Positions 12,321 through 45,800 of a stretch of DNA of 64,000 bases are shown one piece after another (positions within the stretch are counted from its first letter, which is position 1; the number at the start of each line of letters is the position of its first letter). The translations under genes were made by a program, and so were the position numbers. The notes beneath the pieces are model-generated. The model did no database searches. It saw only the letters and a list, made by a program, of their open reading frames with translations, and was not told the DNA's origin. The stretch covers positions 24,800,001-24,864,000 of the forward strand of contig NC_086386.1 in assembly GCF_036588685.1 (NCBI RefSeq), read 5' to 3'. The DNA is from Mytilus trossulus (lineage: Eukaryota).

Positions 12321-12731
12321 ATAGTTATCAAAGGTACCAGGATTATAATTTAGTACGCCAGACGCGCGTTTCGTCTACATAAGACTCATCAGTGACGCTC
12401 CTATCAAAATATTTATAATGCCAAACAAGTACAAAGTTGAAGAGCATTGAGGACCCAAAACTCCAAACAGTTGTGCCAAATACGGCTAAGGTAATCTATG
12501 CCTGGGATAAGAAAATCATAAGTTTTTCGAAAAATTCAAACTTTTGTAAACAGGAAATTTATAAAAATGACCACATTAATGATATTCATGTCAACACCGA
12601 AGTGTTGACTATACTGGGCTGGTGATACCCTCGGGGACGAAACGTCCACCAGCAGTGGCATCGACCCAGTGGTGTAAACAGTTATCAAAGGTACCAGGAT
12701 TATAATTCAGTACGCCAGACGCGCGTTTCGT
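12321..12731 (-). mobile_element. Retrozyme-type (hammerhead-containing, non-autonomous) repeat: one 357-nt monomer plus terminal redundancy
   Basis: The ~51-bp block AGTTATCAAAGGTACC...ACGCCAGACGCGCGTTTCG occurs at about 12323 and 12680 (period 357). GTATA is repeated at both junctions (12319-12323, 12730-12734). Removing the insert restores the LINE frame KPSWYMSSEKL. Confidence 0.8.
12355..12398 (-). ncRNA. Type I hammerhead ribozyme, family A
   Basis: Minus strand reads GCGUCA CUGAUGA GUCU-UAUGU-AGAC GAAA CGCGCG UC UGGCGU: intact core, stems I, II and III pair, GUC cleavage triplet. Confidence 0.88.
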
Positions 12732-12967
12732 ATATGTCATCTGAAAAACTTCTTTCACTGATTAATAATTATCAAATATCCTCAGACACGGCTAAACCAA
12801 TTGACAACAAAAAACTAAGAAATGTTATGTTGAAAGATCGGGAAAAATCTCAAAACTTTCTCAGAAGGAAAACTATGCACAGATGTTACCTTTAAATCAA
12901 ATTTGGTTATGAAAAATATCTTAATATTGTAAAATAGTTATCAAAAGTACCAGGATTACAATTTAGT

Positions 12968-13011
12968 ACACCAGACGCGCGTTTCGTTTACATAAGACTC
13001 ATCAGTGACGC
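12968..13011 (-). ncRNA. Type I hammerhead ribozyme, family A, in a partial retrozyme copy (about 12934-13182)
   Basis: Core CUGAUGA/GAAA/GUC intact; one C.A mismatch in stem II and an extra G.U in stem I. Confidence 0.72.
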
Positions 13012-14031
13012 TCGAATCAAGATAGTTATAAAGCCAAACAAGTACAAAGTTGAAGAGCATTGAGGATCCAAAATTCCAAAAAAAGTTGTGCCAAATACGG
13101 TTAAGGTAATCTATTCCTGGGACAAGAAAATCTTTAGTTTTTCGAAAAATCAAAGTTTTGTATCAAAAAAATGACCACATAATTTGAAGATAGACGGAGT
13201 CTAACAAGATTTCGCATATCTGCTCACCATTTACTTATAGAGAGAAGTAGATATAGTAATACTCCCTGACACAATAGAATATTTAAGAGATGTTGTAGTA
13301 ATGAGGTTGAAGATGAAACACATTTTCTTTTCAACTGTGATAGTTTATCGGACCAAAGGAAAGACATGATATCAATGATAAATAATTGCTGCAAATTTAA
13401 AAAAAATCTTGACCCTAACCAAAAACTGATATGGTGAATGAATAATGTCAGACATGAGAATTTATTATCAGAATTATGCATGTTCATTAAAAAATATGAA
13501 AAGGTTTAATGGGATTTATCTCCCTCTACTACTTGTAATTTGAACTTTATGTTTTCTCTATAGTGAGTTCTAGAGCACCGTCCCTTGATGAATATTGCCC
13601 AGTAGCAATGTCAACCCTTGCTGCTGTGCATTACTCATGAGGAGAATCACTATTGATGTACATGTAATCTCATGTATATGTAGCTAGTTCTGAAGGATCT
13701 CCCCTTGATGACCTTTGCATTGTTGTGATGTAAAAGTCCCTCACTACTGTGCACTGGTCATGAGGAGAACTACTGCAGAATGAGATACTACATTCCTGGT
13801 TCTATTTTTACTTCTTACGTTTTCCTATTCATAAACTTTATATCATATTCTTTTAATATTAAATTGGCCTCATTAAACTCAATGCCTCTTACCATAATTG
13901 TATCCTACATTGCTCATTTTATCAATTTATTATTTGTGTATTACGTATTGTGTTTTTCAATAATGTTTATATAATCATTGTATTATGATGTTTTTGTATC
14001 TTGCCTGACAAGGGCCCATGATTGGTATACT

Positions 14032-14211: not shown

Positions 14212-17200
14212 TTTATCAATAGTAAAAGCGTACAATGTAGTGAACAGTTTTTACTTGTACACTAATAACTAGAATTAAGTAAATACTCTTTTGAAATACC
14301 TTTAGATAATATTTAGACAAAATAATCAAACTGTATCATACATATGATTTAATAAAATATATAAATGCTAATATAAAAATTATCTTTTCTCTTTTTTTTT
14401 CAATTTTATTTAATTTCCAAATTTCACTTCATTTGCCTTACTCTATCCAAAGAAAGATTACTCAAGAATTGTTAATGTAAAATTTGACATGTTACAAAAT
14501 TTCAATCGCTGAACTCTATACAAAGAGAGATAATTCAAAAATTTCAAATGTTACAATTTTTGGCATGTTTTCTTTATTTGCCCTCAACAAACAAAATAAA
14601 AATACACAACTACACAACAATTTATGCAATATCATCATCTTTGTTATTATAATGATGTACATGAAAATATTCTGATCATTTGACTATACAAATAAAATAA
14701 ACTTTCTCGCATAATTAACATTTTCAACATAAATCTAATTGTTAGTCATATTATGCTTAAACCATCCTTCTTGGAGTGTTTGTCCTAAACTCTGTCCAAG
14801 ACTAGTTCCTAATGCAGCTATTGCTTTGCCCAATTGTTAAAATTGCACTAGTTCTTTGTTTCCATGAACAGATGTTTCTTTTAACAAGACAGACTTTGGC
14901 AAGTTAAAAGGATTTGAATGTTTTCCAGCGTTTGTTCGTTTTGATCTCCTTTTTGAATTGTCATCATCTACGCTAGCTGTAGTTACATCTTGTTCATCTT
15001 CGCCAGATTCCTGATGGTCAATTTAAACTGGTAACAAATTCGGGTTGACTATGGTCACATTCAATCCTCCAAAACTCGAATGCTGTCCTCAGTAATATCT
15101 GAACTTGAGTTTTGCATCATTTCTACTTATCCTGTGTCACAGAAAACATTCCTAACCTGGCCACTACCATCCGCTAACTGAATTCCGTACACATTGTCCT
15201 TAAACGGTGAACAACTCTGTACCTCGTTGGATGCCAATTTTCCTGCCTTTTGTTTCGTCCTTGTACATGTTTCTTCAGTAAGATGTTGGAACCAATTTCT
15301 ATAGACTTGTCATCTATTCCTCTGTTCATAATTTCTTGTCTTTCACACGCTTTCTTGTAAAAGTTCTCATTAACTGTCTTAATTAACTCAAGGCTTCGGT
15401 CATTCGCTTCTGATGGTAAGCTGAATAAGTGTCTAAATCGGTGTCTATCTCCGTCATTCCATTATATGAAAAAGATTGTTAATAGGGAGGCTCGGCTCAT
15501 GACCAAACATAACAAAATATGGAGTATATCCAGTTGAAGAATGCGGAGTTGCATTGTATATAAAAGTTAGTTCTGGCATATATTCCGGCCATTCAGCTTT
15601 CCTTTCGGGCATCAATGTTCTTAATCTGTCATGCATGGTCCTATTTAATCTTTCAGTTTGGGCGTTTCCTTCTGGTTTGTACGGTGTTGTCCGTGATTTT
15701 TTAATGTCATATATTCTACAGAGTTCACGTATCACTACATCCTCGAAATTCCTACCCTGTTCACCGTGTAACCGTTTAGGTATCCTTAGTTTCAAAAACC
15801 AATCCTTAACTAAAACTTTAGTATTTAAATCTCTACCATCTGAAGATTTCTCCAAAACTGTAAAATCCATAGCTAAAACATCTAATGGTTTACATGCTAT
15901 TAACGAACCTATTGATGGACGAACAACTGTTGGTAACGGATTTTTAGCAACTGAACAACGTTCACATGTTTTGATACAATGTTTTACATCGTTTACCATA
16001 TCTGACTAGTAACATTGTTTATGCAATAGTGCTAATGTTCGTTCTGTACCTTGATGTCCGGATAAATTGTGTAGTGTTTCAAGAACGTGGTGTTAGAATG
16101 TTTCTGGTATTACTAACTGTTTACACTCACCACATTCTATGTCATTTATCTTTCTGTATAAAATACCATTGTCTATCACCAATGAATCAAATTTCCTCAG
16201 TAACTTCTTCACTTGTTTCGTTTGTCTCGTCATCATCTGTACATGTGTTGACAGTTAACCCTGCTCTACAAAATTTAAAACAACAGAGAGAACATTATCA
16301 CTACTTTGCAATTGTTTATATCGTCTGCAGTATACTCTGGAAATGTTGACATTGTTTCTATCTGATCAGTCAAATTTATTTAGTTTATATGCATGTTTTG
16401 TACATCATTGTTTTTAAAACATTCGCAAGTTGCTCAACATCTAATGCATTCCTGCTCAATACATCTGCTTTGACATTAGATCGTCCGGATCTATATTTGA
16501 CCTCATAGTCAAATTGTGCAAGTTGAGAAACCTATGTCATTTCAGTCGCACTCAGTTTTGCAGTTTGCAGGTAACATAAAGGATTGTTATCGGTATAAAC
16601 TATGAATTTTCTTCCTATCAAATAGTCTCTGAATTTTTCGGTCACAGCCCATTTTAGAGCCAATAATTCAAGTTTCATAGAACTGTAGTTTTCCATGTTC
16701 TTTTCATTCGGATATAAGCTGCGTGATGCGTACGCTATTACAACAGTTCCTGTTCTTGGTCTTGCGATAGAACAGCGCCTAAACATTGAATACACGCATC
16801 GGTTTCTAAACGAAATAGCTTTTTGAAATCAGGAAAGCCTAAAATTGGTGAACTTACTAACTTCTGTTTTAGCTCTTCAAACGACTCTGAACACTTCGCA
16901 TCCCATTTTTCTTGAAATTCTTTAGCACTTAGTAATTTAAATTGCTTGGATTTCCCATCCTTTCCATTTGTTTTTGTAATGAGTGCATGAACTTTGGATC
17001 AAACTTCCTATAGTAACGTTTCTACATAGTCCAAGGAATGACCGGAGTTCTTTTTCTGTGGTAAGTACTTTCCAATCTTGGATTGATTTTGTTTTGTCTG
17101 GGTTTGTTTTTTTATGTCCTAAATATCTTACCTCCTTCTTGAAGAAATGACATTTTGACAATTTTAATTTCAAACCATGCTGTCTTAGTCGTTGAAATAA

Positions 17201-19764
17201 AAACTCCAGGCGTTCTAACTGTTCTTCTGCTGTCTTTGAAAAGATAAAAATATCATCTAAATAAATCAGTTATATTTCAAAAATTTTGTCATTAAACATG
17301 ATTCCATTATTTTTTGGAATGAAGCCGCACTATTAGAAAATCCCATTGGAATTCTAATGTACTCATACAGACCTCCCGTTCCAACGCGAAATGCAGTCTT
17401 ATGTATATCTTTTTCATCGGTCGCTACCTGATAATAACCTTGGGATGAGTCTAGCGTGGTATCAAACGTCGTTCCGTGCAAGGTGTCTAATGCCTCCTCG
17501 ATTCTTTGAAGTGGATAAGCGTCACGTATTGTCTTTTTATTCAGGAATCTGTATTCTACACAAAGTCTAATAGACTTGTCATGCTTACGAACTGTTACTA
17601 CGGGCGCTGCATAAGGACTAATACTCGTACGAATAATGTTTTGATTTAACAATTGTTTGATGTGTGCTCCAACTTCTTCCATTTGATTAGGTGGAATACG
17701 TCTATGCGGAATCGCAATTGGTGTCTCGTCTGTTGTAAGAAATCTATGCTTTACAATGTCTGTGTATCCTAAATCTAAATCGTTTTTACAAAATATATCG
17801 GTGTTCTTGTTTAACGAATCTTTAACTTTTTCTATTTGTTCATCGGTAAGGTTTTTCTTTTGTATGTCGAGGTCACTCAATTGTATTTTCTTATTGTTCT
17901 CTGTATTTGTTGTAGTTTGCTTACCAACAGCAATATCTATTTTCTTTATCTAAACATTAATTTGAGTCTGATCTATATTAATGTCAATATTGTCTTGTGA
18001 CACCTCGTGTATCAGTGAAGCTGAATGTAATGTACCAACTCTTGTTTTCTGATTAATCCATACATCTTCTAATCCTATATTAATCATACGTACCGGTACT
18101 GGTCCTTGACTTATCTCAGCATAACTATCAACTACCATAATGTTTCTCTCGGTAAAGAGCCTTGGTTACCTTGTAATGGCTGAACAACTGCACAATACTT
18201 TTATTATTGTCTTTTTTTCTGGTTGTACACATTACTGTCTTCATTGAATTTCCCGGTATATGTACTGGATTGCTACCTGCTATCTTTACAAAAGACATTT
18301 TTCGAGAATCTATTTCACAGTCAAAAGAATTATTGTATACAGTTAAGATACCTTAAAATTGCTTCCCAATAAGTCTGTTTGTTTCGCTTCCATTATAATC
18401 TTCTAAAAGCTTCTTTCATCTTCATAAATAAATAATTTCCTAGTAAAAATGGTAATTTACTAATGTTATCAGTGTCTTTCACAACAAGAAACCCAACATT
18501 CGGAATCATTGTTTTTGCTACTGAAATATTGAGTTCAATATAACCTAAATAGGGGATTGGTAAATCATTGGCTCTGTGTCTTTCGTCCATTTTGTTTTAT
18601 CATGTAGTATTGGTTTCTTTTGTAATAATGTTTTAAAATATGTTTCAGTAACTGTTGAAACCTGAGAACCAGTATCTATAAGATCTATAACTGATTGATT
18701 TTCAACAACAATTTCTGTCTCTGGACTTTTACTAGCAATGTTTTTAATATATTACTATGAAATGAATTGGCGTCTACTTGTACTGTAGTATCTTCTACTG
18801 ATCGACTCACCGCAGTAGAAGCTACCCTTTTACCTCAATGTCATTAGGAACAACACCAACTCGACCTTGATATATGTTACCTCTTTGGTTATATCTACCA
18901 CGAAAACCTCTTCCTCTACCTCTAAACTGTCCACGCGTATGCGTTTTCTGTGTATCTTTGTCAATTCTTTGTGCTTGAAAAGTTGATGGACATTCCGGAC
19001 GTTTATGACCCTTACCACCACAATTATAACAATTAATTGGTTTATGGCTATAATATACATCATTGTTTGTTGAATCACTATATGTTTTAACATTATACCT
19101 GTTGGACAACCTATCAATTTGCTGTTGTTGCTTTTCTAACATTTCCTGTTTGTAAGAAGTTTAAATATCTCGGAGTTATCTTTCGATGTGTGTTCGGATT
19201 TTATTGCTTGATTGCTAACAAGTTCAGCATCTTGTATTTGTAGTTTTAATTTCCAACTTTGTGCATTTTCAATCACTCAAAGTAACACTTCATGTCTAAA
19301 CTCAAGAAATTTCATTGTTTTGTGCTCATAACTGAATCGTTTTACTTCTCTTTTCAATTGCCATCAGATTCATAGAATAGTCTTGCAAAGTTTCATCATC
19401 TTTTTGGTTTCTTTGTGAAAAAATAGCTGTTGTAATTGACTTACTGAATCATAACCATCATATATACTTTTAATCACAAGCAAAATTTTGGCAACATAAT
19501 CTCTTTCTAATGACGGTCTTAGTTTTATCTCATCTTTTGCTGGAGATATTAGATTTTGCATAAGCAAATCAATTTAGGCTTTTTCTTCTGGTATTGCTTT
19601 AATTGTAAGTTTTTACCTTTTTCTTTGTGCATATGGTATAATTTCTTACTCAATTCGTCTACTTTCTGTAACTTATCTTCTTTAGTTTAAATCTTGCTTG
19701 TTATTTCTATACCCTAGAAAATATTGACTAACCAACGTTGCCAATTTTATATATATATTTAGTT

Positions 19765-20887: not shown

Positions 20888-22879
20888 TTTTTAGCTCACC
20901 TAGCCCAAAGGGCCAAGTGAGCTTTTCCTATCACTTGGCGTCCGGCGTCCGGCGTCGTCCGTCGTCGTCGTCCGTCGTCGTCCGTCATCGTCGTCGTCCA
21001 TCGTCGTCCGTCATCGTCGTCGTCCATCATCGTCGTCCTCCGTCGTCGTCGTCGTCCTTTGTCGTCTGTCGTCGTCGTCGTCCGTCGTCGTTAACTTTTA
21101 CAACAATATTCTCCTCTGAAACTACTTGGCCAAATTAAACCAAACTTTGCCACAATCATCATTGGGGTATTTAGTTTACAAAATGTGTCCGGTGACCCAA
21201 CTAACCAACCAAGATGACCGCCATGGATAAAATAGAACATAAGGGTAAACTACAGTTTTTGGCTTATAACTCAAAAACCAAAGCATTAAGGGCAAATCTG
21301 ACAGTGGTAAAATTGTTAGATTAGGGAGAAATATTTCTTAAGCAACAACGATTTCCAAAAATTTCAAAAACAGCAGAATACAATCAATTAGTAGCATTAT
21401 TGTCGTGCCATAACCGAGACTCCGGCTATTGGGTTGTGATACCCTCAGGGATTAACCTTACTTACAGAGAATATATTCTAATTGTAGTAGTTAAATAAAG
21501 GGAATAAGTTTTACTGCACCTTAACTTATTATTGAGGCCAAGATATTTAAAAAGTCCAAAATCTAACACAAACGTTGAAGAAAAGATAGTAGTAAACAAA
21601 CCTGAAGTAAATCAAATTCAGACAATTAATCAGAGCTTTGCATTATTTTAGAAATCCGTCCGTCGTCGTTAACTTTTACAACAATATTCTCCTCTGAAAC
21701 TACTTGGCCAAATTAAACCAAACTTTGCCACAATCATCATTGGGGTATTTAGTTTACAAAATGTGTCCGGTGACCCGACTAACCAACCAAGATGACCGCC
21801 ATGGCTAAAATAGGACATAAGGGTAAACTACAGTTTTTGGCTTATAACTCAAAAACCAAAGCATTAAGGGCAAATCTGACAGCGGAAACATTGTTAATCA
21901 GGTCAAGATCTATCTGCCCTGAAATTTTCAGACAAATCAGACAATCCGTTGCTGGGTTGCTGCCCCTGAATTGGTAATTTTAAGGAAATTTTGCTGTTTT
22001 TGGTTATTATCTTAAATATTATTATAGATAGAGATAAACTGTCAACAGCAATAATGTTCAGCAAAGTAGGATTTACAAATAAGTCAACATGACCGAAATT
22101 GTCAGTTGACCTCTTTCGGAGTTATTGCCCTTTATAGTCCATTTTTAATAATTTTTCGTAAATCTTAGTTATCTTTTACAAAAATCTTCTCCTCTGAAAC
22201 TACTGGGCCAAATTAATCCAAACTTGGCAACAATCATGTTTGGGGGTATCTAATTTAAAAAATGTGTCCGGTGACCCGGCCATCAAATCAAGATGGCCGC
22301 TACAGCCAAAAAAAGAACATATGGGGTAAATGCAGTTTTTGGCTTATAACTCAAAAACCAAAGCATTTAGAACAAATATGACAGATTTAATTGTTTATCA
22401 GGTCAACATCTATCTGCCCTACAATTTTCAGATGAATAGGAGAATCGGTTGTTGGGTTGCTGCCCCTGAATCGGTAATTTTAAGGAAATTTTGCCGTTTT
22501 TGGTTATTATCTTGAATACTTTTATAGATAAAGATAAACTGTAAACAGCAATAATGTTCAGCAAAGTAAGATTAACAAATTTGTCAATACGACCGAAATG
22601 GTCAATCGACCCCCAAAGGAGTTAGTGTCCTTTATAGTAAATTTTTAACAATTTTCGTAAATTTTAAAAAATTTTATCAACATTTTCCACTGAAACTACT
22701 GGGCCAAGTTCATTATAGATAGAGATAATTGTGAGCAGCAAGACTGTTTAGTAAAGAAAGATGTACAATCCCATCACCATCACCAAAGCACAATTTTGTC
22801 ATGAATACATCTGCTTCCTTGTTTAATATTCACATAGACCAACAAGGTGAGCGACACAGGCTCTTTAGAGCCTCTAGTT
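20888..22879 (+). mobile_element. Helentron-associated HINE (pearl/DINE-1-like) with (CGT)n microsatellite and ~500-bp internal tandem units
   Basis: 5' TTTTTAGCTCACC plus inverted GTGAGCT; (CGT)n at 20940-21090; the unit marker CTGAAACTACT at 21116, 21694, 22194 and 22690; 3' GGTGAGC, hairpin AGGCTC-TTTA-GAGCCT, then CTAGTT. Confidence 0.75.
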
Positions 22880-23969
22880 ATCTTTAAACTTATTTCTGTT
22901 TCCAAGATTTCCAGAATGTTTCAAAAGCATTTTTGAAAATGTCGGTTTTAATTACACGTTTGTTCATTTTCCAATAACCCGGGCCTCTTTCTGGTTCGAT
23001 GATGTTTATAGAAATTGCCACGCCGTCATGATCACTGTCAGGGAAATAAACAATTGTGCATTATTTTTTTTTTATCTACAATCGATATTCTCACTATATA
23101 TAATATAGTCTCGAGTATGATTGACCCCTACTATATTTGTAGAAAATTAAGGGACGATAATTGTGTGCATAGAACCTTTTAGCGTATCTAATAAATTATG
23201 TAGGGTACAAATTATAACATTACTGTTCTCCAACAGCACTCTGATGCTGTGAAAAAAAGACAAAATCAATATAAAATTCAAAATTATTTTTTGTATATCC
23301 CTGCAACTTAATACCATCTGTTTACAAAATTGGGCAAAGATATTTAATAAATATTTTTTCAAAATCAGATTTTTTTGATTCCTATCTGAATATTAGTATT
23401 TGTTTATAAATGTAATTTATTTCAGTGTTCTCATTTAATTGTAATAAGCTTGTTTAACATCCAAACACGTCCGAATATCTATAGATATCATCAATTGTTG
23501 AGCTCTAATAATTATATTGTTCTTGAAAAACTTTGTAGATTTATAAAAAATATAAATGTGAGGGACACTCCTCCTGGTTACTTTGTAATTTAATGTGTAT
23601 GTTTGTATTGTTCACATGTGCTTTATTATTTAATGTAATTGTTAATACATATATATGTTCTGTAACTATGTAATTTGTAGTTAATGAGAAATAAAATTTA
23701 AGGCCCTATTGCACAGTTATTTTGTAGTGCATTTCTTTGATACATTAAATGAAAATTTAAAAACATCTCAGCACCACACAGCACTTTTTCAATAATATTT
23801 GTTTATTGTGTTGTACTATTTTTGGGACAAATTATATCAAAGTTATAGAAAACCTCATCTGCTCGAACTCAAAATATGGACAATTTTATGGTTAGGGAGT
23901 CTTGAATTTTTTTGACAGAATCGTAACACACTGTACACACAATGTTCTATTTTTAACACATTTGTTAAA

Positions 23970-24118
23970 CTAGATACCCCCACCAAGATTGGTTAAATTT
24001 TGCCCAGCAGTTTCAGATGAGAAGATTTTTGTAAAAGTTGACGACGAAGGACGACGAACAATGAAAGACGACGGACGACGACAGAAGATGGACACCTTCG
24101 GGTCAGGTGAGCTAAAAA
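23970..24118 (-). mobile_element. 5' fragment of a HINE-type element
   Basis: Plus strand (GAC)n-like tract followed by GGTGAGCTAAAAA, the reverse complement of the HINE 5' end. Confidence 0.55.
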
Positions 24119-24687: not shown

Positions 24688-24731
24688 ACACCATATCCGG
24701 ATTTCGACAATAAATGTCTCTTCAGTGATGT
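24688..24731 (-). ncRNA. Type I hammerhead ribozyme, family C (mirror copy)
   Basis: Exact reverse complement of 24904-24947. Confidence 0.82.
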
Positions 24732-24903
24732 TAGGGATCGAAACGGTATTTGGAAGGCCATATAAAAAGTACCCTCATTTTTAGAGAAAGTACCCTCATT
24801 TTTAGATTAACTCTTGAATTTTAAGAGTCAATATATAGGATGAACGGATCATAAAAATGAGGGTACTTTTTATATGGCCTTCCAAATACCGTTTCGATCC
24901 CTA

Positions 24904-24947
24904 ACATCACTGAAGAGACATTTATTGTCGAAATCCGGATATGGTGT
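24904..24947 (+). ncRNA. Type I hammerhead ribozyme, family C
   Basis: ACAUCA CUGAAGA GACA-UUUAU-UGUC GAAA UCCGGA UA UGGUGU; all stems pair; AUA triplet. Confidence 0.82.
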
Positions 24948-33251: not shown

Positions 33252-36159
33252 TATAAACTGTTGTTCCATTATACATTTATCCACACACCTTTGATTGAAA
33301 AAACTTCAACGTCAGAGTTGTAGCAGCAGAGCCTTATATTATTTATAAAGGTAAGTGTTTGTGTTTTCGTAAGTATTTTCTTCAATAATTGCTACAGTTG
33401 AAATTAAAAGGACTTACATAAGTGATTTAGCAAAACTATTCTTTTCAGAAAATAAGTTGTATAAAACAAAAAATTGTTCAACCTTTTTTGTTTTTTCCTT
33501 TACATTTTGTAGTATTGCGCTGTTTTGTTTACACAAATATTATACTGAATTCTTTTTCATACATTCATTTATTTTGTAAGTTCAGTATAAAATAATCAAC
33601 CAACATCTCTTGTGGAGAGTTGTCTCATTGGCAAACATCCCACATCTTCTTTTGTTACATCATAAATGTCGTTAATGATGTAATATACTAAGCTTTCAAA
33701 TTGTTTTGATTTGTCTAAAGCAAAGTGTCAGAGCTCCCGCGTTGACATAAACTAATATTGATACACTCACTCCCGGTATATTTTTCTGTTTATTAACCAC
33801 ACGTAGTGTTCAAAGCCATATGGTGTTTTTACTTCTTGGATATAATCGAGGGATTGATTTGGTTAGGTTTTACTTTTTCATTTTTTAAATTTATTTTTGA
33901 GGCCTATATTTGTGTTGATACTTTTTTACTGAAAAAGATGAATGCATGTTTAAACATATGTTTAAATGTATGCATGTACGATGTTCCCTTATGGATTTTT
34001 ATCTCTTTAAGAATCATATGTATATACATATTATTCAGGTAATTTTCTTTCTTGCAGATACGCTTATCAACTTCAAAGACAATTATAATGACTTCTATTC
34101 TAACCGGGTTCTTGTTTGCGTGGATGTGTCTTGATAGTACTGGTCAGATTTTAATTTATATAAATAGTGTTTCAAGAAAATCCTGTTGCTTAATCTGACT
34201 AAAAATTACGACTATCATTTACTAAACAAAAAGATTGCTTGTCATAGGATTATTTTATGATTGCAAAACATTTAACTTTAGACAGATCAGCCACTAAAAT
34301 AATGTTAAAACGAGTCTTGCACAGAGTTCACTTCGACCATCCTTGTTTAAACAATGAGAGTTAACATTTGCCTTGGTCCACCATTTACTATTTCAACTTC
34401 TGTCTGGGGCTAGCTTGCATTGGTTGTAAACATACAATTAATTGTCCATGTTTCTTCTCAAATACATTACAATATGCATTCAATCTTAACTGAAATTTCC
34501 GATTTGCCTTTTGCATATCGAAAACGATTTTGTTACTCTTTAAAAATAAGTTTACGTACATTGCATAATGAAACGAAGACCATATTCTTCAAGTCATAAA
34601 AGATTTTGGTCAAAGGCAAAGTTTTAAACAGTTCTATCATGTAGCAGTCCGTAAATATTCATAAGCTTACAGTTTAATTACAATAGCATCGCATAACAAG
34701 GTTATCGTACGTATTCTAAAAAGAAATGTATCTATGGCAATATTTAACATTTACTTACGGGGTGATATAAACATGCTTAATGACAGTAATGTGGATGTAC
34801 AACAAAAAAACTGATGGTCGTCTTAGGTTTAGAGTCTTATTATTTCTTCTTGTTATTAAAACAAAAATGAACCTGCATTAAGATTCCGTAGTTTTAATAT
34901 GTCAGGATAGTTTTGCTCGCATTAATCAAAAACAAAAATGTAGATGTTGGTATTACCAATCAACAAATATAGTTTGATGTATTGACTAATATAATAATTA
35001 GTTTTAAATTACACAATTATGTCGGCTAAAAGATCCACTTTGACACAGTTATGTTGTCTTTACGATATAACTTTACACAATTATGTCGACGTTAAGATTT
35101 AACTTTACATATTTCAATTCATAATGCTGAACCGATACTCAAAATAGAAGTTTTGATATTTTAACTTGTTTTTTAGTGACAACGTTTGTCCCCCATAGAC
35201 AATTTGTACTCATAATTTAACTATGTGCCGATATCATTAATTAATACATTTTGCTACTTTGATGGCCAATATTTTTTCCCTGAAATATATAAAACATCCA
35301 TACTAAAGAAAAATCGCCTAACGAGAGCTTCGTAATTTTTCTTTTATCGTTTTAAAGATTAACTTCATCTATTGATCATTATATAATTAGCCTTACAAAA
35401 GTAAAACTGCAACCAGTTCATTGTATACTTACTTTAAACACATACTTTGATTGGTTTTTTTAAGAGAAGGGATAAAGTTCATATTGCTAGCACAATCATG
35501 TACAACTCTAAACAAAAAAGCTTTGAAATGCAGGAAAATTTAATTACTGTGAAGAACTCGCAAAATAGCTATCTAAGTTCAAAATTTCTTATAACGTATA
35601 AATGTTAAATGGTATAAATTGTGTAATAAATCTTACGATGAAATACCAGATTCTGATTGGTTAATACGAGGGGAGAACATTTTCTCTCTCGCTGGCCATG
35701 AGGGTTAGCATAAATAACATACATCTCGTCACTTTTGTCACATTTCTTATCAATTTTAAAGTAACGGATGATAGAGCAAATGGTCACCCATCGGAAAATA
35801 TTGTCTATATTGCCTCGCCTTGGTTGACAATCTTATTTCGAAGAAAGAAGCTGCTATCCAACCCTTTCTGATTAAAATTATTTAAAGTCAATTTATTTTT
35901 AAAAGGCAAACTGTATGTTCGTTTATGTATGTGTATATTTTACCTGTTTCAAAATATGTTTTAAATCTTTTTTTCAGCTGCATTTTCACTGTCATTACAA
36001 TCAGGCAATATCACCCTACGCCATACAGTGGACCAAAACATATTTGAAGTGAATACTATTGAACAAAGTTTACCATTTTTATATTGCTACAGTTTTTTAT
36101 CGAGTAATAAGCTATCAAATGCATTTAAAGCGCTATTTAGACTTTTGATTACCTTATGA
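33252..36159 (+). pseudogene. C1qDC paralog with the C1q domain deleted
   Basis: TATAAA 33252-33257; non-coding exon 1 ending 33350 (AAG|GTAAGT); exon 2 34058-34142 with ATG at 34088 (MTSILTGFLFAWMCLDST, donor GTCAGA); exon 3 acceptor 35977/35978 (AAFSLSLQSG), then a jump after 36007 straight into 3'UTR-homologous sequence; AATAAA mutated. Confidence 0.85.
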
Positions 36160-38010
36160 CTAAAACAAAAAAATATATTGCATGTATGTCTGGCCTTTGT
36201 TAGTCTTGTATTATTTAAATTTTAGTTTCTTGTGTACAATTTGGAAATTAGTATGGCGTTGATTATCACTGAACTAGTATATATTTGTTTAGGGGTCAGC
36301 TGAAGGACGACTCCGGGTGCGGGAATTTCTCGCTACATTAAAGACCTGTTGGTGACCTTCTGCTGTTGTTTTTTTTATTTAGTCGGGTTGTTGTCTCTTT
36401 GACACATTTCCCATTTCCATTCTCAATTTTATTATAAATGAATTGTAACTTATTTAGTTATCTGAATTTCCGTTTTGTAATACAAATATTTTTCTTATTC
36501 TTACACGATTCATCCTTTTCCTTGTTTAATCTCACTACTGTTTCAGTAAATATTCGATTGTGTCGTCAAATTTTCTTGCCCCTCCTTTAAATTTCCTACT
36601 ACCACAAAGAGAAAAAGGCGACCATGCTTGATGATGTCACATAGAAAGAGGAAGGATTGAGTTTGTCTGCATATTGTTTAAAAATCATTAGTAAGTGCAA
36701 TACGATGTTTATCCACTTTTGACAGTTAGTTATAAAGTATTCAAAACGCTCGGCGACTCTTTTGGTACAATTAAATAATTATCATGTTCTAGCCTGCACA
36801 CAAGTACCATAATGCTGCTTTGAGAAGAAGTGAATCTTACAGTTTTAACAATATAATAACATGAATACCATACAGCAACATATATACGTACAACTATGCT
36901 GTGAAATGTCGTGTACATCATAGATATATACCGAGGGATAGGTATGTCTAAATAAGAATTCCCGTCAGCCGGAGGCCGGAATGGTTTCTTATCAAGAAAT
37001 GCCGTATCACGAGGTGTATAACTTACTTACATATATGAGACAACTATCCACATGAAGACCAAAATGACACAAACATGAACAACTATAGGTCACCGTACGT
37101 TCTTCAACAATGAGCAAAGCCCATACCGCAGTCAGCTATAAAAGGCCCCGAGAAGACAAATTTAAACAATTCAAACGAGAAAACTAACGGCCTTATTTAT
37201 GTAAAAAAAAATGAATGAAAAACAAATATGTAACACATAAAAAAACGACAACCACTGAATTACAGGCTCCCGACTTGGGACAGAAACATACATAAATAAT
37301 GTGGAGGGGTTAAACCCTATTCTTAACCCTATATTTGTAAACATTGATTATGAAATTAAAAAAAAACGACTAACAGACACGCAAATCTAATATTTGAGAA
37401 CTTTCTTTTTGTGAGAAATCAGGTGCTGATTCGTAACAACGCATCAGTTCAATTTACTCTAGCATCTATGATATAACGTGAAGCAATCTGAATAGACGAA
37501 TTACCAGCAGCTATTTGGACATTTATTTGGGCTTAAATACATTTTGATAGTTTGTTGGTTTTTTTCTTCTTATTGTTTTCTATTGATTAATAAATAATTT
37601 ATTTCTTCTTTTAGTTGATTATGTGCTAGTTATTAAGAACAAATCACTGAGACAATTCTTCGTCCGTTCGTCTTTGACAATGCCATACGCAATATTCAAT
37701 TTCTAGTTTATAGCATCATAAGTTTGTCGTCTATTTTTACTGAATATAAACAATAAAATGCGGTATCATTGCCATTTAGACAACTCTTCACAAGAAACAA
37801 AATGACATGGAAATTGGAAATATAGTTTACTCTACGGCTTTAAACAATAATAAAACTAATACTCCATAGTCGGCTCGAAAAGGCACCAAAATGACACTAG
37901 CAAAACAAGTCACAAAGAGAATAACAACTTCTAATTAATGAAGGACAAAATGAACGAAAATCAAATATGTGCCGCATGAACATACGACAATCAGTTAATT
38001 ACAGGCTCCT

Positions 38011-39061
38011 CAGTCAGGATTCTACTTCGTCAAAATTATCTCCCCATTACGCAAGTTCATTTTCAAAATCGTTAAAACGGAAGCCATTGTAGGGATAACG
38101 CGCTACCAATTTTGCTTTTGGAAACCGATAAATTTATCCACATTGCACCATTACGATCCTTATATGTCAGTTGTATTTTTAAAGACAAATGTATCAACTA
38201 GTTAATGAGCATCAGTTAATAATCTTGTCTGCATTTATTCAACTTAAAACTTTTGTCTGATCGGTTGTCTGGTGGAATTAAATATTTCCTGGAAGGGCAG
38301 ACTAGATTTGTTTAGTGTATGAAGACTATAAACTCTAGTTATCACACACAAAAAAAATAGAATTTTTCGAAGATATGCATTTTCATCATCCAACTTGAAA
38401 GACTGTCGTCAAGTAGTTTCAGTAAAAAATAGCTTTTCTAACACACCTTCTCTGTTTTTGTGACTCATTAGATAGGGATTTTACTTGACCCATATACTTC
38501 ATCTTTTAGTGCTGTGATTTTTTTGTGTTATAAAGCCAACCTGTAGCTTTAATATAAATAAATGATAGAATCTGAAGCGAGACGATGTATGAAATATTCT
38601 TACTTTGTACGATTTCAAGACAAAATACTCAACTCAAACACGCCGTAACATAAAAAGGTGCACTAGATTTTCTCTTTTCGATACAATTGTTACCCATTTG
38701 TGATTGTTTAATTCAGTCACATAATGGCAGGTCAGACACGAAAATTACTGAACTAATAGATTGATATGTTTTCTGTCCGTGGTAGTTTTTTCCAAAGAAA
38801 ATCGGAGGTTATGCATTTTTTTCATCTAACTTGAAAGATACCCATTTCGTCGACTTGATATATAATTGTTCTGCTTAACTATGTACTAGATAAATTAAAA
38901 ACTTATGCACATGGTGTTTTTAAAATAAAACACCTCGTAATTGAGAAGAAAACTGCAATTTTGTTTGTGTCTATCAACTTTTAAAAATGTTGTCACTATG
39001 CTTAGTAGTAAACAATACAAAATTCATTTATTTTGTTCTATTGTAACCTGGTTTCAGACTG
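38011..39061. mobile_element. 1051-bp non-autonomous TIR element with 4-bp TSD; superfamily unassigned
   Basis: TCCT TSD (38007-38010, 39062-39065); termini CAGTC...GACTG; the other arm has an empty site with a single TCCT at about 48593-48596 (-). Confidence 0.75.
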
Positions 39062-40562
39062 TCCTTACTTGGGACAGGCACACAAATCCATACAGAATGC
39101 AGCGGGGTTAAGCATGTTAGCGGAACCATAACCCTCTACTATTCTGGGACAGTGGTGTCAAAGTTTTTTTAGTTCTTTTTTTGAACTATTTGATTTTATT
39201 TTTTTTTGGTTGTTATGAATATTCATGGCTGGATGTGGAAATTAACTCATAATAAACACCAGGGTTAAACTTTTATATTTGGAACAGATGCACGTTTCGT
39301 CTACAAAAAAAATTGAAGAGCATTGAATTCCTAATTTTTTTTCCAAATACAGCTAAGACAATATATGGCTGACGTAGAAAAGTATTTTCAAAACAAAATC
39401 AAAGTTTAGTAAACAGCTAATTTATAATTATGAATATATGGATGATAATTCAAGTCAACACAAAAGTTCTGACTACTCGGCAGGTGATACACTCGGTGAA
39501 CTCTACTTACACTGACATAGACCAAGTGGTTGTAAAGAAAATCATTATAGATATCAGGATTGAAATCTTATGTTTGGGACAGATACGCGTTTCTGTTGTC
39601 TACAAAAGACAGGCGAAAGATATATATACCAGAGGGACAGTCACTCATATATCGAGAATAAACTGACACTGCCTAGGTTGAAAATGAACAAGACACATGT
39701 CATATCATAGAAAAACTAAAGACTTCACAACACGATCAACACCAAAAATTCGGGGTGATCTCTGTTCGTTTTTGATGCGTTTTGTTATTTGATTTTGCCA
39801 TGTGATTATGGACTTTCCGTATTGATTTTCCTCTGAGTTCAGTATTTTTGTGATTTTACTTTTTGCTCGGGAATAATAAACTGATCCTGCTCAACATGTG
39901 GCACCTGAAGTGTTGTTTATGTTATGACAAACCCAGTATAAAAAGTCTAATTTGTTAGGTTCAATTGTATTTACGACGTTAGAAACACATACGATATCAT
40001 CTGTGAAACGGTAATTCCATAACGTTCAACCAACCCATGATGGCGTCCGTAACAATTACGTTGGGAAATTCACAATTTGGAACTCTTGTTTAACAGTCTC
40101 CTTGTAAGTAGCAAACCTCTATTAAGATAATCATGATTTGAAATACAAAGACGGGGATATCGTATCAATCTGGAGATATATACTCCGTATGTAGGCGCTG
40201 CTGCAATGTTGCTTCTCAGATATGTAAGTTCACAATTGGCAAGCTAAAATCATCTCTTTTGTCATAAAGTATACAAAGTCAGGAATCTGATGTACAGTAG
40301 TTGTCTTTTGTTTATGTAATATATACGTGTTTCTCGTTTCTCGTTTTGTTTATATATATTAGACCGTTGGTTTTCCCGTTTGAATGGTTTTACACTAATA
40401 ATTTTGGGGCCCTTTATAGCTTGTTGTTCGTTGTGAGCCAAGGCTCCGTGTTGAAGGCCGAACTTTAACCTATAATGGTTTATTTTTTAAATTGTTATTT
40501 GGATGGAGAGTTGTCTCATTGGCACTCACACCACATCTTCCTATATCTAAAGACTCACCAGC

Positions 40563-41160
40563 ACATTTAATGTAGATTAAAAATTACACCACTCCAGGCC
40601 TTTTTATTTTCCATGTAATTAATATTGCCAATAATTAAAAATCCGGGTCGAGTCCGATACCGATACCAATAGTATATTCACCTGTTACCTTTTACCTTAT
40701 TTGTACGTGTTGCATCTGACAGGCGCACCACAAAACAGTGTATTCAGAATTAATATGCTATATAAACGGGTCATAATCACAGGGTTGACACTACTAAATT
40801 GTAAAATTGTTACCTATTGTAGTATTTCAATCAGTAAGACTTTCTAAGATAACAGTACGAATACTAAAAATCTTGACAAAAAATAAGGCGTATAGGTACA
40901 GTTTTCAATTTGTTAGCGGGTATGACGTAAAACAGCGAGTTTTTGTTTTCCAAATAATTAATATTACCAATAATTGATAAGTTCCAGTTCGACGGATTCA
41001 AACAAAAAGATTTGAAAGAAGAGAAAACTGTATCTTATAATCGGCATGACTTTATCAGATTACAATACTATAGTACTAATACTAAAAAAAGGCTTGCGCA
41101 TAGTTATATACTTTTTTTTTAATTCAGTCACAGACCTGCGATATGACGGGTGTGTTCTAG
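40563..41160 (+). mobile_element. Non-autonomous Helitron-like element, 3' part
   Basis: Ends in an imperfect hairpin ACCTGCG-ATATGA-CGGGT followed by CTAG|T at 41157-41161; 5' boundary uncertain. Confidence 0.45.
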
Positions 41161-41459
41161 TATATATATATATATATTAATATACCATGGTACATAGTAG
41201 TAGGATTGGAAGGATTGTAACTCCCATCTGTACCAAAAGAATTATTTACTAGTAAGCAGGGGCGTTATCACGATATACAACTCATTATTTGCTCGTTCAC
41301 TCCTTTTTTTATACTGAAATTATGATAAATATATGGGAGTGACCACACCTAACCATCTTTTACTGCCAAAAAATCAAACATCTGTACTGCATAATACATG
41401 TTCAATTTTATTTATATTGACATTTGATGAATACACCTGGTATGTGTTGGAGTGACGGT

Positions 41460-42380
41460 ACTGCTGGTTGAGATTTATTTCCATTAGGGTATCACCAGCC
41501 CAGTAGTCAGCACTTTTGTTCTGACATGAATTATCATTGATATGGTTATATCTATAAATTTACTGTTCACAACATTTTGAATTTTTGACATACTAAGGCT
41601 TTTCTACCTCAGACATAGACTACCTTAGCTTAATTTTAGGAACTTCGGTCCTAAATACTTTTTAACTTCATACTTTATTTGACCTTTTTAACTTTTTTGG
41701 ATTTCGTCACTGATTGGTCTTTTGTAGACGAAACGTGCGTCTGGCGTAGATACAAAATTTAGTCTTGGTATCTCTGGTGAGTTAATTCACTACCACTGCG
41801 TCGATGCCACTTCTGGGTGAGATTTATCTATGATGAGTTTATTTCCTGCCTGTTATCAAAATCTGTACATCTTACCTCCGTAACTATTTTATTGTCAATG
41901 TTGTAGACAATAAAATATGTTTTGGATTTAAATGCTCTTCAACTTTGTTCTTGTTTGGCTTTATACATATTTCGATATAAGCGTCACTGATGAGTCTTAT
42001 GTAGACGAAACGCGCGTCTGGCGTACTAAATTATAATCCTCGTACCTTTGATAACTATTTGAAATAATAGTACAAAGTTGAAGAGCACTGAGAACTCATA
42101 ATTTCAAAAAAGTTGTGCCAAATACTTCTAAAGTAATTTATTCCTGGAATAAGAAAATACTTTGTAAAAAGTTTTGTTAACCGTAAATTTATCAAACATA
42201 ACTTGTAATTGATATTCATGTCAACACCGGGGTGCTGATTTCTTGGCTGGTGATACCCTCAGGGACTAAATGTCCACAATCATTGTCATCGACCCAGTGG
42301 TGTTCATAATTATCAAAGAAACCATTGTTATTTAGTACGCTAGACGCGCGTTTCGTCTACATGAGAATCATCAGTGACTC
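41460..42380. mobile_element. Cluster of three retrozyme-type copies (two +, one -)
   Basis: Homologous to 12321-12731. Hammerhead copies at about 41705-41747 (+, core mutated to CUGAUUG), 41981-42024 (+, intact) and about 42337-42380 (-, stems partly mismatched). Confidence 0.75.
41981..42024 (+). ncRNA. Type I hammerhead ribozyme, family A
   Basis: GCGTCA CTGATGA GTCT TATGT AGAC GAAA CGCGCG TC TGGCGT; predicted cleavage after C42018. Confidence 0.88.
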
Positions 42381-42828
42381 CTTTACAATTCATTTTATAC
42401 TATAACTGGTTGGATAATTGGTATATGTGGGAGCTCCGTAACAACTTAACTTTATGATGTTTTTTTCCATTAATAATCCAAAATGATCTGATTGGGTTCT
42501 GTTAATATCTCATTCAGAATAAATTATAGAAAAGATAGTCACGGCTTCCTCTGCCTCATTATAGCACTTATACCTCAAATTTGACATACGCATTCATCTC
42601 ACAGAATCTGTGTCAAACGAGATGATTTCAATTTTGTAAAAAAAACAATTTACTCAAACTTAGTAGCAATATACCAAGTCGGATAACTTGTCCGTGTGGG
42701 AGTTAACTCGCTGTATCATATCTTACTACCTAAAATATGTAACGAAAAAAAATTATCGCTAAGTTCCGTCATAACTTTATGTACACATACATAGATATCT
42801 ATGGTAAATGTGGTAGTACATCGTTTTA

Positions 42829-45800
42829 TACGGAAGCCGATAAGGGCCATTCAAAAAAACAATTTATGTCGTAATTACGACATAGCATGTCGTAATTTTG
42901 ACATATCATGTCGTTATTACGATTCTAATTCTTTGGAATCAAGTCGTTATTACGACATCGCTATGTCGTAATTTCGACATAACATGTCGTTATAACGACA
43001 TAGATAATATTTATAATATAAGTAATAATATTAGTACTGGCATGAAAATACGGATTTACTGTGTTATTAAAATTTGCTGTTACAAAATATAAGAAATTAT
43101 TATAAATTAAGGAATGTATCTCCCTCATGCAAAGCTCTGATTCCTTTCACGGATTTGGCTATACTTTTTGGACCTTTTGGATTATAGCTCTTCATCTTTT
43201 ATATTAGCTTTGGATTGCAAATATTTTGGCCACGAGCATCACTGAAGAGACATGTATTGTCGAAATGCGCATCTGGTGCAAGAAAATTGGTACCGTTTAT
43301 TTTATTATAGTTTACCTCTACTGCAAGCTAAGCATTTCATCTCCCTTTTAATAAGCGCAAACTACATGTCTCTTTGTAATTAGGGTAAATTGAAGTGTTG
43401 ATTGCTCTAATTTACTTTCAAACGTTGGGCACCATGCTCCTACAACACGTTACACTTAAAATGCGGTGTCGAAGAGGGTTTTACATTGTTGGTTAATTCT
43501 TGTTCTGTTCGTTTTGTGATGTCATTTTATCAAAAATTACCTCGGGTTGTGGAAATCGATTTGATAATGTTTACGCTTTTTAAAGTTTTTTGAACTAAAA
43601 ATGCAGTACTGTCGCAATTAATGCAAGAAGGAAAGATGGGATGGAAGTACATGTAAACGGTTTTCCATGGTTTTTTTTATCATAGGATGTTTAACTTTCA
43701 AGGTGCATAGCATTCAGTGTGATATCATCTGTCATTGTATATTTTCTATATCTTAATTCAACCCTAATACAAATATATTGAACATTTTTACCCTTGGTTA
43801 AATTTGAATAGAATTGTATTTCCCTGGCACATATGTTGTCGAAATACACCCCTTCGATTACTTGAACCTTAGCTTGAGAATTATTTCCCAAGTTAGTCAT
43901 CTTGACTCCAGATATATACATTTTAAAATATAGAAATCAACTCCTGGATCGTCCGCGAAAACGGCAAATATTATCCTGGGTTTTTATTAATTCAATGAAA
44001 CGGTTTTCGTCGCTGTTTGGGATTTGTTTTTCAATTACCTCCATTTCATTCACAAGTTTATATTCGGACGAAAAGTTCCGGCTTGCGCTAGTACAGGAAT
44101 TGCTTTCATCAAGACATTTATACCATGAATAGCAGGACAAATCGCGGGGTAAATCATTGAATTTCCGTTAACTGGTATTTAGTCTTTTAAAACTGATGAT
44201 TGCACCTTACTGAAGTGACGCATTTAAATGATCTATTTCGGAGTACTTCCGTAACATAAATTTCCTTTCGCGTTTTACATTTAGAGGACTGTCTTGGTGT
44301 CTCAAATTTGTCTTTGCAGAAGTTGGACGAAGTTCATGTAATGGTATTTTTTCCCAATTTCATTTTTTTTTAAATAACTCGTTAAAAGCTTTATAGTTTT
44401 TCGATTAATAAAAAATGCAAAATTTAACCTGTGTCGAACCTATGTTCTCGGGCGGAGTCTATAGCAACATGCACTTTTGTTTCCGGCAGCAATCATCAAC
44501 CTCTTTTTCCGAATTTCATAAACGATTTCTTTTAATTCTCATGAACATTTAATTGAAACTTAAGCACATGCATATGTAACGTCAGAAATTAGCGTCTTTA
44601 GGATCTTAGACGTTTTAAGATGTTTGGACGAATTGGCTACCGTTTAGTAATGTATAGAAGCATTTTATTCCTTTAAGACCCGAATATGTAGTTGATAACT
44701 TGGCATTGTTTACTCCTCGTGTATCAAACTTTTGTTTTGATCAATTATAAAAAAATACGCAATATTTGCTTTGAAAAATGAAATATTAACTTGGACAAAA
44801 TGACTACCTTTTGAAAAACGACTATGTAGAGAGGATTGTATTGAATCAGCAATATTTGCACTCACATGAGGCAAATATTTGTACTTTTGTTAGTTATTAT
44901 TATTGTCTTACTCTTTTTTTCATTTTCTGCTATATCTACGTTTAGTCGTTGAGTTAACGAAAAACGTCGGACATTTTTGTTTTATTCCAGCTTAATATGC
45001 AGCCAGCGAGTCAAATGAAATTAGGTAAAATAAGTGCTTTAACGCCAAAAAGAATCGACACATGTCGTTGATCCTGACAAAAATAAAAAAGATCGGAGAA
45101 TAAGAAATAGGATCACAATACATGAGAGTTAAAACAGTTTTTCATAAATGTACCGTTGGACATCCGGGTTTTTTTCACGATTGCTTTCTTATTTTAATCC
45201 TCAAATATACTAGATATTACTTAGAATATGATCAAGAGCTGTAAAAACATAATTCAAAACATATATTAAATTTGATTTAATATTGGTTCGTGTTTTCTTA
45301 CATTTTTATTTTGTTTTTGCGGACGAAATTGAGAAGATTCTGTATTAAAACCTAGGGGTTGTAGAATCATCGTGCCCTACGTTTGAAAGTAGAAATAGAG
45401 CAAACAATACTTCATTTCACCCTCATTACAAGAAGCCATGTAGTTTACGATTATTTATAAGGAGATAGAAAGAATGGCTTGCCTCGGAAGGACGAGTCCA
45501 CTTCTCTAATAAAATTTCAATATCGACAACTTGGCAATGTTTGTGTCTATCATTTTTTTTTTTATCTGTATTCAATTCTTCAACATATATATACAACAGA
45601 TATATTACATATTACACAAAAATATCACAAGGCAATGTTTTAAGTATAATCACATATATATCTATCATGTCTTGCAGTAAATCTTTTTTACGACCGATAT
45701 TGGGATCTATAAAATATATATGCTTCTCACTGAAGGTTACCAAAGAAAGTACCCAAAGATTTTGCGACGATGCAAATATTAAACTTTAAAATATAAATAG

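Follow-up and report, generated by a model that had tools for sequence, protein, structure and literature searches.

Short hammerhead-like motifs recur in a 64,000-nt stretch of Mytilus trossulus DNA (the whole stretch that was analyzed, hereafter the window), and an earlier note on this DNA proposed that their different stem III palindromes act as family-specific pairing codes that stop co-resident retroelement RNAs from forming cross-family dimers. The locus raises the questions of which elements carry these motifs, how such elements are copied, and whether the palindromes represent a selected code or differ by descent.

The full window was searched with a hammerhead pattern in which the six inner palindrome letters were free and up to three mismatches were allowed, which revealed eight motifs compared with none in 100 shuffles. 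Five of the eight are exact and the remaining three are damaged copies of the family A lineage. The core CUGANGA...GAAA...UH is present in the five exact copies together with helices I (6 bp, open), II (4 bp), and III (2 bp plus a tetraloop), and judged by this anatomy, as read from the letters, the eight short motifs are type I hammerhead-like and belong to three non-coding repeat families. Beyond the window, 10 exact matches spread over eight loci were identified in metagenomes, and the family pattern had no match in viral contigs or in prokaryotic genomes. The letters confirm the description in the earlier note of stem I (GCGUCA/UGGCGU in A, GCAUCA/UGGUGC in B, and ACAUCA/UGGUGU in C), of stem II (GUCU/AGAC vs GACA/UGUC), and of one palindromic stem III per family with the triplets GUC, AUC, and AUA. 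Its five-nucleotide loop II holds for the motifs it described but not throughout, as the loop is 6 nt long in one of the 10 outside matches (L008). Its three families were recovered as well, on a window basis of two intact A copies, one B copy, and one C event. The features are as follows.

12321-12734, minus strand: family A retrozyme copy, slightly longer than one unit (sequence comparison)
12355-12398, minus strand: intact family A hammerhead (RF00163 33.0 bits; predicted cut between 12361 and 12360)
12590-12673, minus strand: conserved structured domain of A and B (A/B comparison and structure)
12934-13180, minus strand: 5'-truncated family A copy (hammerhead 12968-13011, one stem II mismatch, 28.7 bits)
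24444-24850, minus strand: left arm of the family C inverted insertion (hammerhead 24688-24731)
24851-25317, plus strand: right arm of the same insertion (hammerhead 24904-24947; stranded RNA reads)
39240-39620, minus strand: decayed unit of subfamily A', adjoining the 3' end of a reverse-transcriptase-like remnant
41451-41787, plus strand: decayed subfamily A' copy (broken hammerhead 41704-41747, core and palindrome changed)
41919-42060, plus strand: 5'-truncated family A copy (intact hammerhead 41981-42024, RF00163 33.0 bits)
42069-42380, minus strand: decayed family A copy (hammerhead 42337-42380, changes in both stem I and stem II, 19.3 bits)
43034-43309, plus strand: 5'-truncated family B copy (intact hammerhead 43236-43279; 96.7% identical to L006 over 276 bp)
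about 48075-48420, plus strand: duplicate of the arrangement of A' unit and reverse-transcriptase-like remnant (sequence comparison)
about 1162, 12736, and 39307, all minus strand: further decayed A-lineage remnants (similarity)

The Rfam check that had been proposed gave a divided answer. Among the RF00163 matches listed up to E 10, both exact A copies score 33.0 bits (E 2.4e-4), 1 bit under the gathering score of 34 bits, and two damaged A copies score 28.7 and 19.3 bits; the B and C hammerheads are missing from the 18 rows listed. Family A aligns to model positions 1-45 of 45 and has the same stem III (ACGcgCGU) and GUC triplet as the consensus, whereas B and C carry the GACA/UGUC stem II and the triplets AUC and AUA. 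The sub-threshold score weakens the formal filing under Rfam but leaves the anatomical hammerhead call intact. None of the 44-mers has the hammerhead as its minimum-energy fold, and mussel hammerheads are described in the text of PMC7229834 as lacking most conserved loop 1-loop 2 contact residues.

Unit lengths are 357 nt for A (in the window, from predicted cut to cut at 12718 and 12361 on the minus strand), 350 nt for B (L006), and 573 nt for C (L003). Families B and C are seen as exact head-to-tail units at these two outside loci; the C tandem at L003 is possibly a collapsed assembly. One ribozyme of the A tandem in the window is damaged: the one lying 357 nt upstream of position 12361 is missing its 5' half. 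No tandem pair of intact same-strand hammerheads was found in the window. Families A and B are, from their sequences, sister families with 68% identity, and they align along the entire unit, with 250 of 366 columns identical and a score of 342 vs 98 ± 10 for shuffled sequences; C has little in common with either beyond the ribozyme. The units have a GC content of 34-40%, and their longest stop-free stretches span 68-90 codons. All three families thus show the short head-to-tail repeats around a hammerhead, the lack of a coding frame, and the GC content below 50% that define non-LTR retrozymes, whose repeats are about 150-450 bp long with a consensus range up to 972 bp and which are regarded as derived from Penelope-like elements (bioRxiv 10.64898/2026.07.22.740005). 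The units are likely to be non-autonomous retrozymes.

RNA reads exist for A, B, and C in the same runs. In two runs of one study, 86% and 87% of the reads at family C have the direction in which most stranded libraries would report hammerhead-sense RNA, whereas two other abundant repeats show 39-44% by the same measure. Read starts and ends do not pile up at the predicted cut sites 24941, 42018, 42343, and 43273 in three RNA runs, from libraries of a type that may miss cleavage, and the RNA depth of the units is of the same order as that of other repeats; cleavage and abundant circles therefore gain no support from these runs. Circle junctions were absent among the 15 joints listed of 2124, and palindrome-position variants among the 40 read variants listed of 1152. 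A read end at 24905 (X24) does not coincide with a cut site.

Insertion ends bear on how the units were copied. Thirteen of 17 A, A', and B copies end 28-47 nt beyond the cut site, and because such ends resemble the "tail" and internal initiation of Penelope, they were counted in favor of Penelope-like copying. The two C arms are 99.7% identical over 341 bp and lie on opposite strands, forming a single insertion of two 5'-truncated arms head to head; the left arm ends 250 nt and the right arm about 376 nt beyond the predicted cut site, both at (AT)n tracts. The pair at 24444-25317 accordingly combines 5' truncation, an inverted copy, alternative 3' ends, and a microsatellite target, which together form the insertion signature of Penelope-like elements. 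(A miRNA-like Rfam match, mir-5984 at 24745-24887, stems from the inverted junction of C, lies far under thresholds, and was discarded.) The enzyme that copied families A, B, and C was likely a Penelope-like reverse transcriptase. An open reading frame with telomerase-like reverse transcriptase and GIY-YIG endonuclease was not found within or between units, nor was an autonomous element having the same ends as A, B, or C. The same features might indicate that what remains here, particularly in family C, are pseudo-LTRs left by autonomous Penelope-like elements instead of retrozymes in their own right: type I hammerheads are known from the literature in such pseudo-LTRs, the majority of copies stand alone and are 5'-truncated, C is inverted and flanked by (AT)n, and one decayed A' unit adjoins a reverse-transcriptase-like remnant. 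That adjacency, however, is one event that was duplicated, and a further copy of this reverse-transcriptase-like 3' end, at about 7460, is not followed by a hammerhead. Moreover, the exact head-to-tail B and C units contain no long reading frame, and the helix sizes match the form termed canonical, not minimal, in the literature, so that a pseudo-LTR origin appears improbable.

The double-hammerhead literature is said to include Forster 1988 and Lunse 2017. The earlier note took it as known that a palindromic stem III goes with dimer cleavage. Published work bears this out, both having long been reported from newt, axolotl, Schistosoma, and Aedes (in the text of PMC4209133, PMC3088659, and PMC6765202). 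Perfect palindromes are present in 17 of 22 copies, and the other five carry six palindrome substitutions, five of them CpG transitions; the change from the A to the B palindrome likewise amounts to two CpG-type transitions. A selected code would find support in a nearest-neighbor model, in which homodimers (A:A -29.5, B:B -27.3, and C:C -24.7 kcal/mol) would be 18-21 kcal/mol more favorable than a pair of monomer folds and heterodimers (A:B -13.4, B:C -13.0, and A:C -3.5 kcal/mol) are 13-24 kcal/mol worse than the homodimer mean. The C loop CCGG also meets GCGC with G.G and C.C mismatches, of the nine possible one-step changes B-to-C discriminates most (an outcome that drift gives 1 time in 9), no copy among the 22 carries the whole palindrome of another family, and the three RNAs occur in the same runs. 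Against this, the A and B palindromes both contain GCGC and pair at 7 of 8 positions in register; the A-to-B penalty of 3.0 kcal/mol is the least of the nine changes and lies within the lowest 1.4% of 2016 palindrome pairs. The A palindrome is that of the Rfam consensus and is common to the distinct subfamily A', stem I pairs across families at 5-6 of 6 positions in all combinations, and a cost of heterodimers is not evident. Because a palindrome and its flank adjoin each other within a single element, common descent is enough to keep them linked, and the proposed tally of palindromes against flanks does not discriminate; in a tandem transcript the nearest partner is always of the same family, which makes a code unnecessary. 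The literature, including the text of PMC7229834, has mussel ribozymes cutting from one repeat and invertebrate hammerheads as efficient monomers. In both Schistosoma and Aedes, two palindromic loops per species were already given in Fig S8 of PMC3088659, with some doubt about the order of the letters in the extracted text; the three family motifs were not found in 11 supplementary files of that paper. The pairing differences thus stand as a model result, a selected code to prevent cross-family double hammerheads is very unlikely, and the evidence mostly points to descent. There is similarly little to expect of the idea that family C switched its loop from GCGC to CCGG under selection against cross-pairing with abundant A and B RNAs.

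Less remote, yet still doubtful, is that the palindromes serve the monomer alone, as a stem capped by a stable tetraloop, or persist by chance, with dimers irrelevant in either case. One cloned mussel repeat is reported to self-cut at about 0.1/min, i.e., as a monomer, and a stem III of 2 bp plus a tetraloop is termed the more stable form (text of PMC7229834). The monomer hammerhead fold is nevertheless marginal here (-2.1 to -5.7 kcal/mol), and GCGC and CCGG are both self-complementary, which implies two matched changes, whereas a loop serving the monomer would require no such matching. In addition, a palindromic stem III was found in four of 120 loci matching a broad core pattern in prokaryotic genomes, mostly chance matches, compared with eight of 10 mussel-type motifs, which are non-independent and represent three lineage states. 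The monomer reading is otherwise compatible with the best explanation.

According to that explanation, which we consider probable, the motifs belong to non-autonomous retrozymes that are copied by a Penelope-like reverse transcriptase and whose palindromes differ by descent under selection for self-complementarity, not as a code. Read-through transcription of tandem or scattered copies, for which RNA reads were seen, would be followed by cutting after GUC, AUC, or AUA, either by a lone ribozyme or by palindrome-paired neighbors in the same transcript, as published work suggests. A host ligase would close the monomers into circles, as published for mussel retrozyme RNA. Reverse transcription may then initiate within a template that is uncut or circular, in A and B about 28-47 nt beyond the cut, where the ends are observed, and would yield the 5'-truncated, tandem, and inverted insertions that are all present. 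A compensatory change that keeps the palindrome would lower the fit to the old palindrome as a by-product.

Directly beyond the usual A/B insertion end sits the conserved, partly covarying domain of about 84 nt, in which unit positions 45-106 are identical between A and B at 56 of 62 sites and to which a UUCG hairpin with compensatory changes adds. Its structure was drawn from one of the compared rows, and the pseudoknot is putative, with one two-sided change in each of two helices, both in decayed copies. A second ribozyme was considered and rejected: the helix order is similar to that of an HDV-like fold, yet P4 and the catalytic joining strand are absent, and no Rfam match is listed at the domain up to E 10. 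A polymerase III promoter was likewise set aside; an 11-mer 43-51 nt beyond the cut site resembles the B-box consensus, yet the units contain runs of 4-5 U, which would halt polymerase III. We tentatively suggest that this possibly pseudoknotted domain is a candidate signal by which a Penelope-like reverse transcriptase recognizes retrozymes, a lead that is likelier than a selected palindrome code; a recognition motif of this kind had not been found according to a 2020 review. Together with the 573-nt family and its inverted insertion and the fixed 3' end of the 350-nt families, the conserved downstream structure would help to name the element that mobilizes animal retrozymes. A selected code, if true, would represent natural self-recognition among RNA parasites and provide orthogonal dimeric ribozymes.

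This class of element is already published for the host group. In Mytilus, about 5000 type I hammerheads have been described that fall into two families resembling each other in sequence, with 350-390 bp repeats expressed as circles, and the retrozymes of Mytilus galloprovincialis have a GC content under 50% and no ORF (Cervera and de la Pena 2020; text of PMC7229834). Matched on this description, the 357-nt A unit and the 350-nt B unit agree in length, GC, and lack of an ORF, whereas the text of PMC7229834 mentions neither a third, 573-nt family nor a fixed 3' end or conserved downstream structure; family C, with its Penelope-type inverted insertion, is probably unreported in the literature found. 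Retrozyme circles are described there as highly self-paired, whereas the fold stability of the circular units here is not above that of shuffles (z -1.1 to -1.6). Short self-complementary stem III and loop sequences are shared with known double hammerheads, in which they permit an 8-bp helix between two ribozymes; the 2-bp stem III with tetraloop is, in contrast, the form for which monomer cleavage is reported in invertebrates, and dimer use is modelled here. Unlike Penelope-like elements, the units carry no reverse transcriptase or GIY-YIG frame, and the extra stretch at one C end is about 125 nt, compared with 30-40 nt in those elements. Similar to Neptune, Naiad, and Poseidon, as described in the text of PMC8557442 and PMC11167929, the units nevertheless combine a near-3' hammerhead, 5' truncation, inverted head-to-head copies, two 3' ends ("tail"), and (TA)n targets, and would likewise be reverse transcribed from uncut RNA.

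The window is repeat-rich animal DNA (32% G+C) with C1q-domain exons and retrotransposon fragments. These features, and the agreement of the repeats with published ones, suggest a mussel-like bivalve as the probable host. Its hammerhead motifs are real, of a known class and correctly described by the earlier note, with which the stems, loops, palindromes and triplets of the three non-coding repeat families (A, B and C) agree on re-reading of the window sequence. A search pattern with the hammerhead core fixed and the six inner palindrome letters free had eight matches in the window and none in 100 shuffles used as control; five were exact and three were damaged copies of the A lineage.

Exact hammerheads in the window (core-fixed pattern)
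12355-12398, minus strand: family A
24688-24731, minus strand: family C
24904-24947, plus strand: family C
41981-42024, plus strand: family A
43236-43279, plus strand: family B

Rfam had no match in the window at gathering level. At E-value level, RF00163, whose consensus has the stem III and triplet of family A, scored 33.0 bits on the exact A copies (threshold 34), and the B and C hammerheads were absent from its matches in the window. The predicted minimum-energy fold of every 44-mer differs from the hammerhead fold, and the modelled circular units gain no folding stability over shuffles (z -1.1 to -1.6), both of which count against a retrozyme reading. A hammerhead-like string (CUGAAGA...GACGAAAC) at 15240-15285 on the minus strand, within the LTR-element region and without pairing stems, is likely due to chance.

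Other features of the window
1309-1833, plus strand: C1q-domain exon (Pfam PF00386), with related copies in the next two lines
51734-52201, minus strand: C1q-domain exon (PF00386)
about 35877-36145: related copy of the C1q-domain exon
15454-19160, minus strand: broken LTR-retrotransposon of Gypsy gene order (zinc-knuckle-like stretch, RT PF00078, integrase core PF13683)
20946-22713: (CGT)n-like tract, then a 500-bp tandem duplicate, belonging to a dispersed repeat also at 23956-24092
26599-29776, minus strand: broken LINE-like element (endonuclease-like and RT PF00078 frames)
59955-60437: AT-rich 21-bp array; about 470 bp of it are self-complementary, with a 78% inverted self-match

The PF00386 matches have E values of 8e-7 and 2e-3, and the related copies form a small gene cluster. 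An old, large inverted duplication (30179-40278 versus 47517-59440, about 80-86% identity in blocks) includes a 32-bp minisatellite with 35 copies at 52937-54058 and three at 35009-35109.

One metagenome scan added eight loci with 10 exact hammerhead matches outside the window. The window has one A unit, 357 nt from one predicted cut site to the next. Locus L006 carries a head-to-tail family B repeat with a 350-nt period, and this repeat shares 96.7% identity with the B copy in the window; dense, prokaryote-looking reading frames flank this tandem on both sides (1-700 and 2150-3178), and the contig may be a chimeric assembly. Family C has a 573-nt period in locus L003, which is possibly a collapsed array or circle because its two copies are 99.7% alike. 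A and B can be aligned along the full unit, with 250 of 366 columns identical and a score of 342 (98 for shuffles). Alignment scores of C with A or B are weak, and the clear match is limited to the ribozyme surroundings (90% over 42 nt between C and B). A', a subfamily of A with distinct loop II and tail, is present in the window and in loci L001, L002 and L008. No long reading frame was found in A, B or C units (68-90 codons at most).

The earlier note proposed that the differing palindromes of stem III could act as family-specific pairing codes against cross-family dimers. Among 22 copies (14 A/A', four B and four C), ACGCGCGU occurred in 10 of the 14 A/A' copies, AUGCGCAU in three of the four B copies and AUCCGGAU in all four C copies, which represent two events; none of the 22 carried another family's whole palindrome, and CpG transitions made up five of the six substitutions in imperfect copies. 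Linkage already predicts this association of palindrome with flank, and the tally cannot separate a code from descent. Mussel-type palindromes are far above the control, where 4/120 prokaryotic pattern matches were palindromic. One of 120 broad-pattern matches, on prokaryotic contig L102, has the family A palindrome without a full stem II. Both loop states being self-complementary in sequence supports some presumptive dimer use. When the full double hammerhead is modelled with nearest-neighbour energies, homodimers reach -24.7 to -29.5 kcal/mol versus -3.5 to -13.4 kcal/mol for heterodimers, so cross-family dimers would be disfavoured, a result in favour of the earlier note's idea.

However, any two different palindromes are partly incompatible, and the relevant question is whether they are more so than by chance. 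The A and B palindromes keep 7/8 pairs, and their modelled stem III penalty (3.0) ranks among the smallest 1.4% across 2016 pairs. Among nine one-step changes each, A-to-B has the smallest penalty from A and B-to-C the largest from B (9.7); in the model, one lowest plus one highest value is no pattern. Stem I cross-pairs at 5-6 of 6 positions in all family combinations. Moreover, A' has the same palindrome as A, the A palindrome is the Rfam consensus, the nearest partner in tandem transcripts is same-family, and cleavage as single units has been reported for invertebrate ribozymes with this architecture (PMC7229834). A family-specific code is therefore very improbable. Family specificity more likely resides in the partner enzyme than in the palindrome, because family C has other ends and targets and a domain conserved between A and B was not found in it.

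This domain of about 84 nt lies immediately beyond the point where A/B insertions usually stop. Within unit positions 45-106, a region picked after inspection, A and B are identical at 56/62 positions versus 194/295 elsewhere, and a UUCG hairpin follows.

Copies of the conserved domain
12590-12673, minus strand: window
42209-42300, minus strand: window
L006 860-945, plus strand: metagenome locus

The domain has no Rfam match. A five-helix structure drawn from an A copy and scored on seven copies, most of them decayed, paired in 85% of cells and had eight pairs with two-sided changes (five in two hairpins), the covariation control being biased by copy relatedness and by the drawing of the structure; a pseudoknot is possible. 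Because the Poseidon element requires RNA downstream of its start sites (PMC11167929), the domain is, by analogy, a tentative candidate for a binding signal of the mobilising reverse transcriptase. A 2020 review (PMC7761336) describes animal retrozymes as having no conserved motif that points to a partner.

Judged by eye, 13 of 17 A/A'/B copies end 28-47 nt past the predicted cut site, and the other four continue into the following unit. The family C pair (24444-25317) consists of two 5'-truncated arms placed head to head (joint at 24850/24851). One arm stops 250 nt and the other about 376 nt beyond the predicted cut site, and each end abuts an (AT)n tract; within the unit, about 125 nt separate the two ends. 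A transcript through this inverted insertion would form a hairpin of ~340 bp, 99.7% perfect. Inverted 5'-truncated copies, one-end-only extension and (TA)n targets are the reported signature of Penelope-like elements (PMC8557442), and a purified one initiates reverse transcription at two positions inside uncut RNA (PMC11167929). The template of the genomic copies would be uncut or re-ligated RNA, since they keep the ribozyme joined to its 3' flank. Remnants of reverse-transcriptase-like element 3' ends lie at 7460-8044 (minus), 39620-40260 (minus) and 47520-48070 (plus); they have no Pfam match and presumably resemble Naiad-type Penelope-like elements. A decayed A' unit begins right at the end of such a remnant in one case, which is duplicated.

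Two studies provided three RNA runs, of which 6-18% each was compared, together with one contig set, with window positions 24852-43330; reads were present for all three families. First-mate directions in the C bin were 253 versus 41 and 375 versus 57 in two runs, a bias that would represent hammerhead-sense RNA under the convention of most stranded libraries. In two runs, the same-direction share was 62% and 61% for A, 71% and 53% for B, and 39-44% for two other abundant repeats; directions in the third run were symmetric everywhere. RNA depth of the hammerhead families is of the same order as that of other repeats, and no read-end pile-up at predicted cut sites was found in the three runs over this region, both of which count against a retrozyme reading. 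Absence from the best 40 of 1152 variant rows and 15 of 2124 joints is uninformative.

Palindromic stem III with dimer folding has been described before, in agreement with the earlier note (PMC4209133, PMC6765202, PMC3088659); Fig S8 of PMC3088659 presents two palindromic loops each in Schistosoma mansoni and Aedes aegypti. In a literature search that covered mainly open-access papers, no title or abstract put forward palindromes as family-specific codes or described a mussel retrozyme of 573 nt. A 2026 preprint (bioRxiv 10.64898/2026.07.22.740005) links such hammerhead repeats to pseudo-LTRs. For Mytilus galloprovincialis, Cervera and de la Pena (PMC7229834) describe some 5000 type I hammerheads, which fall into two families with similar sequences, occur in 350-390 bp repeats and are expressed as circles; a ribozyme from one cloned repeat is reported to cut at about 0.1 per minute, and Penelope-like elements are named as likely mobilisers. 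By that paper's description, A and B fit these elements and are likely the published mussel retrozymes, and family C is probably an unreported third family.
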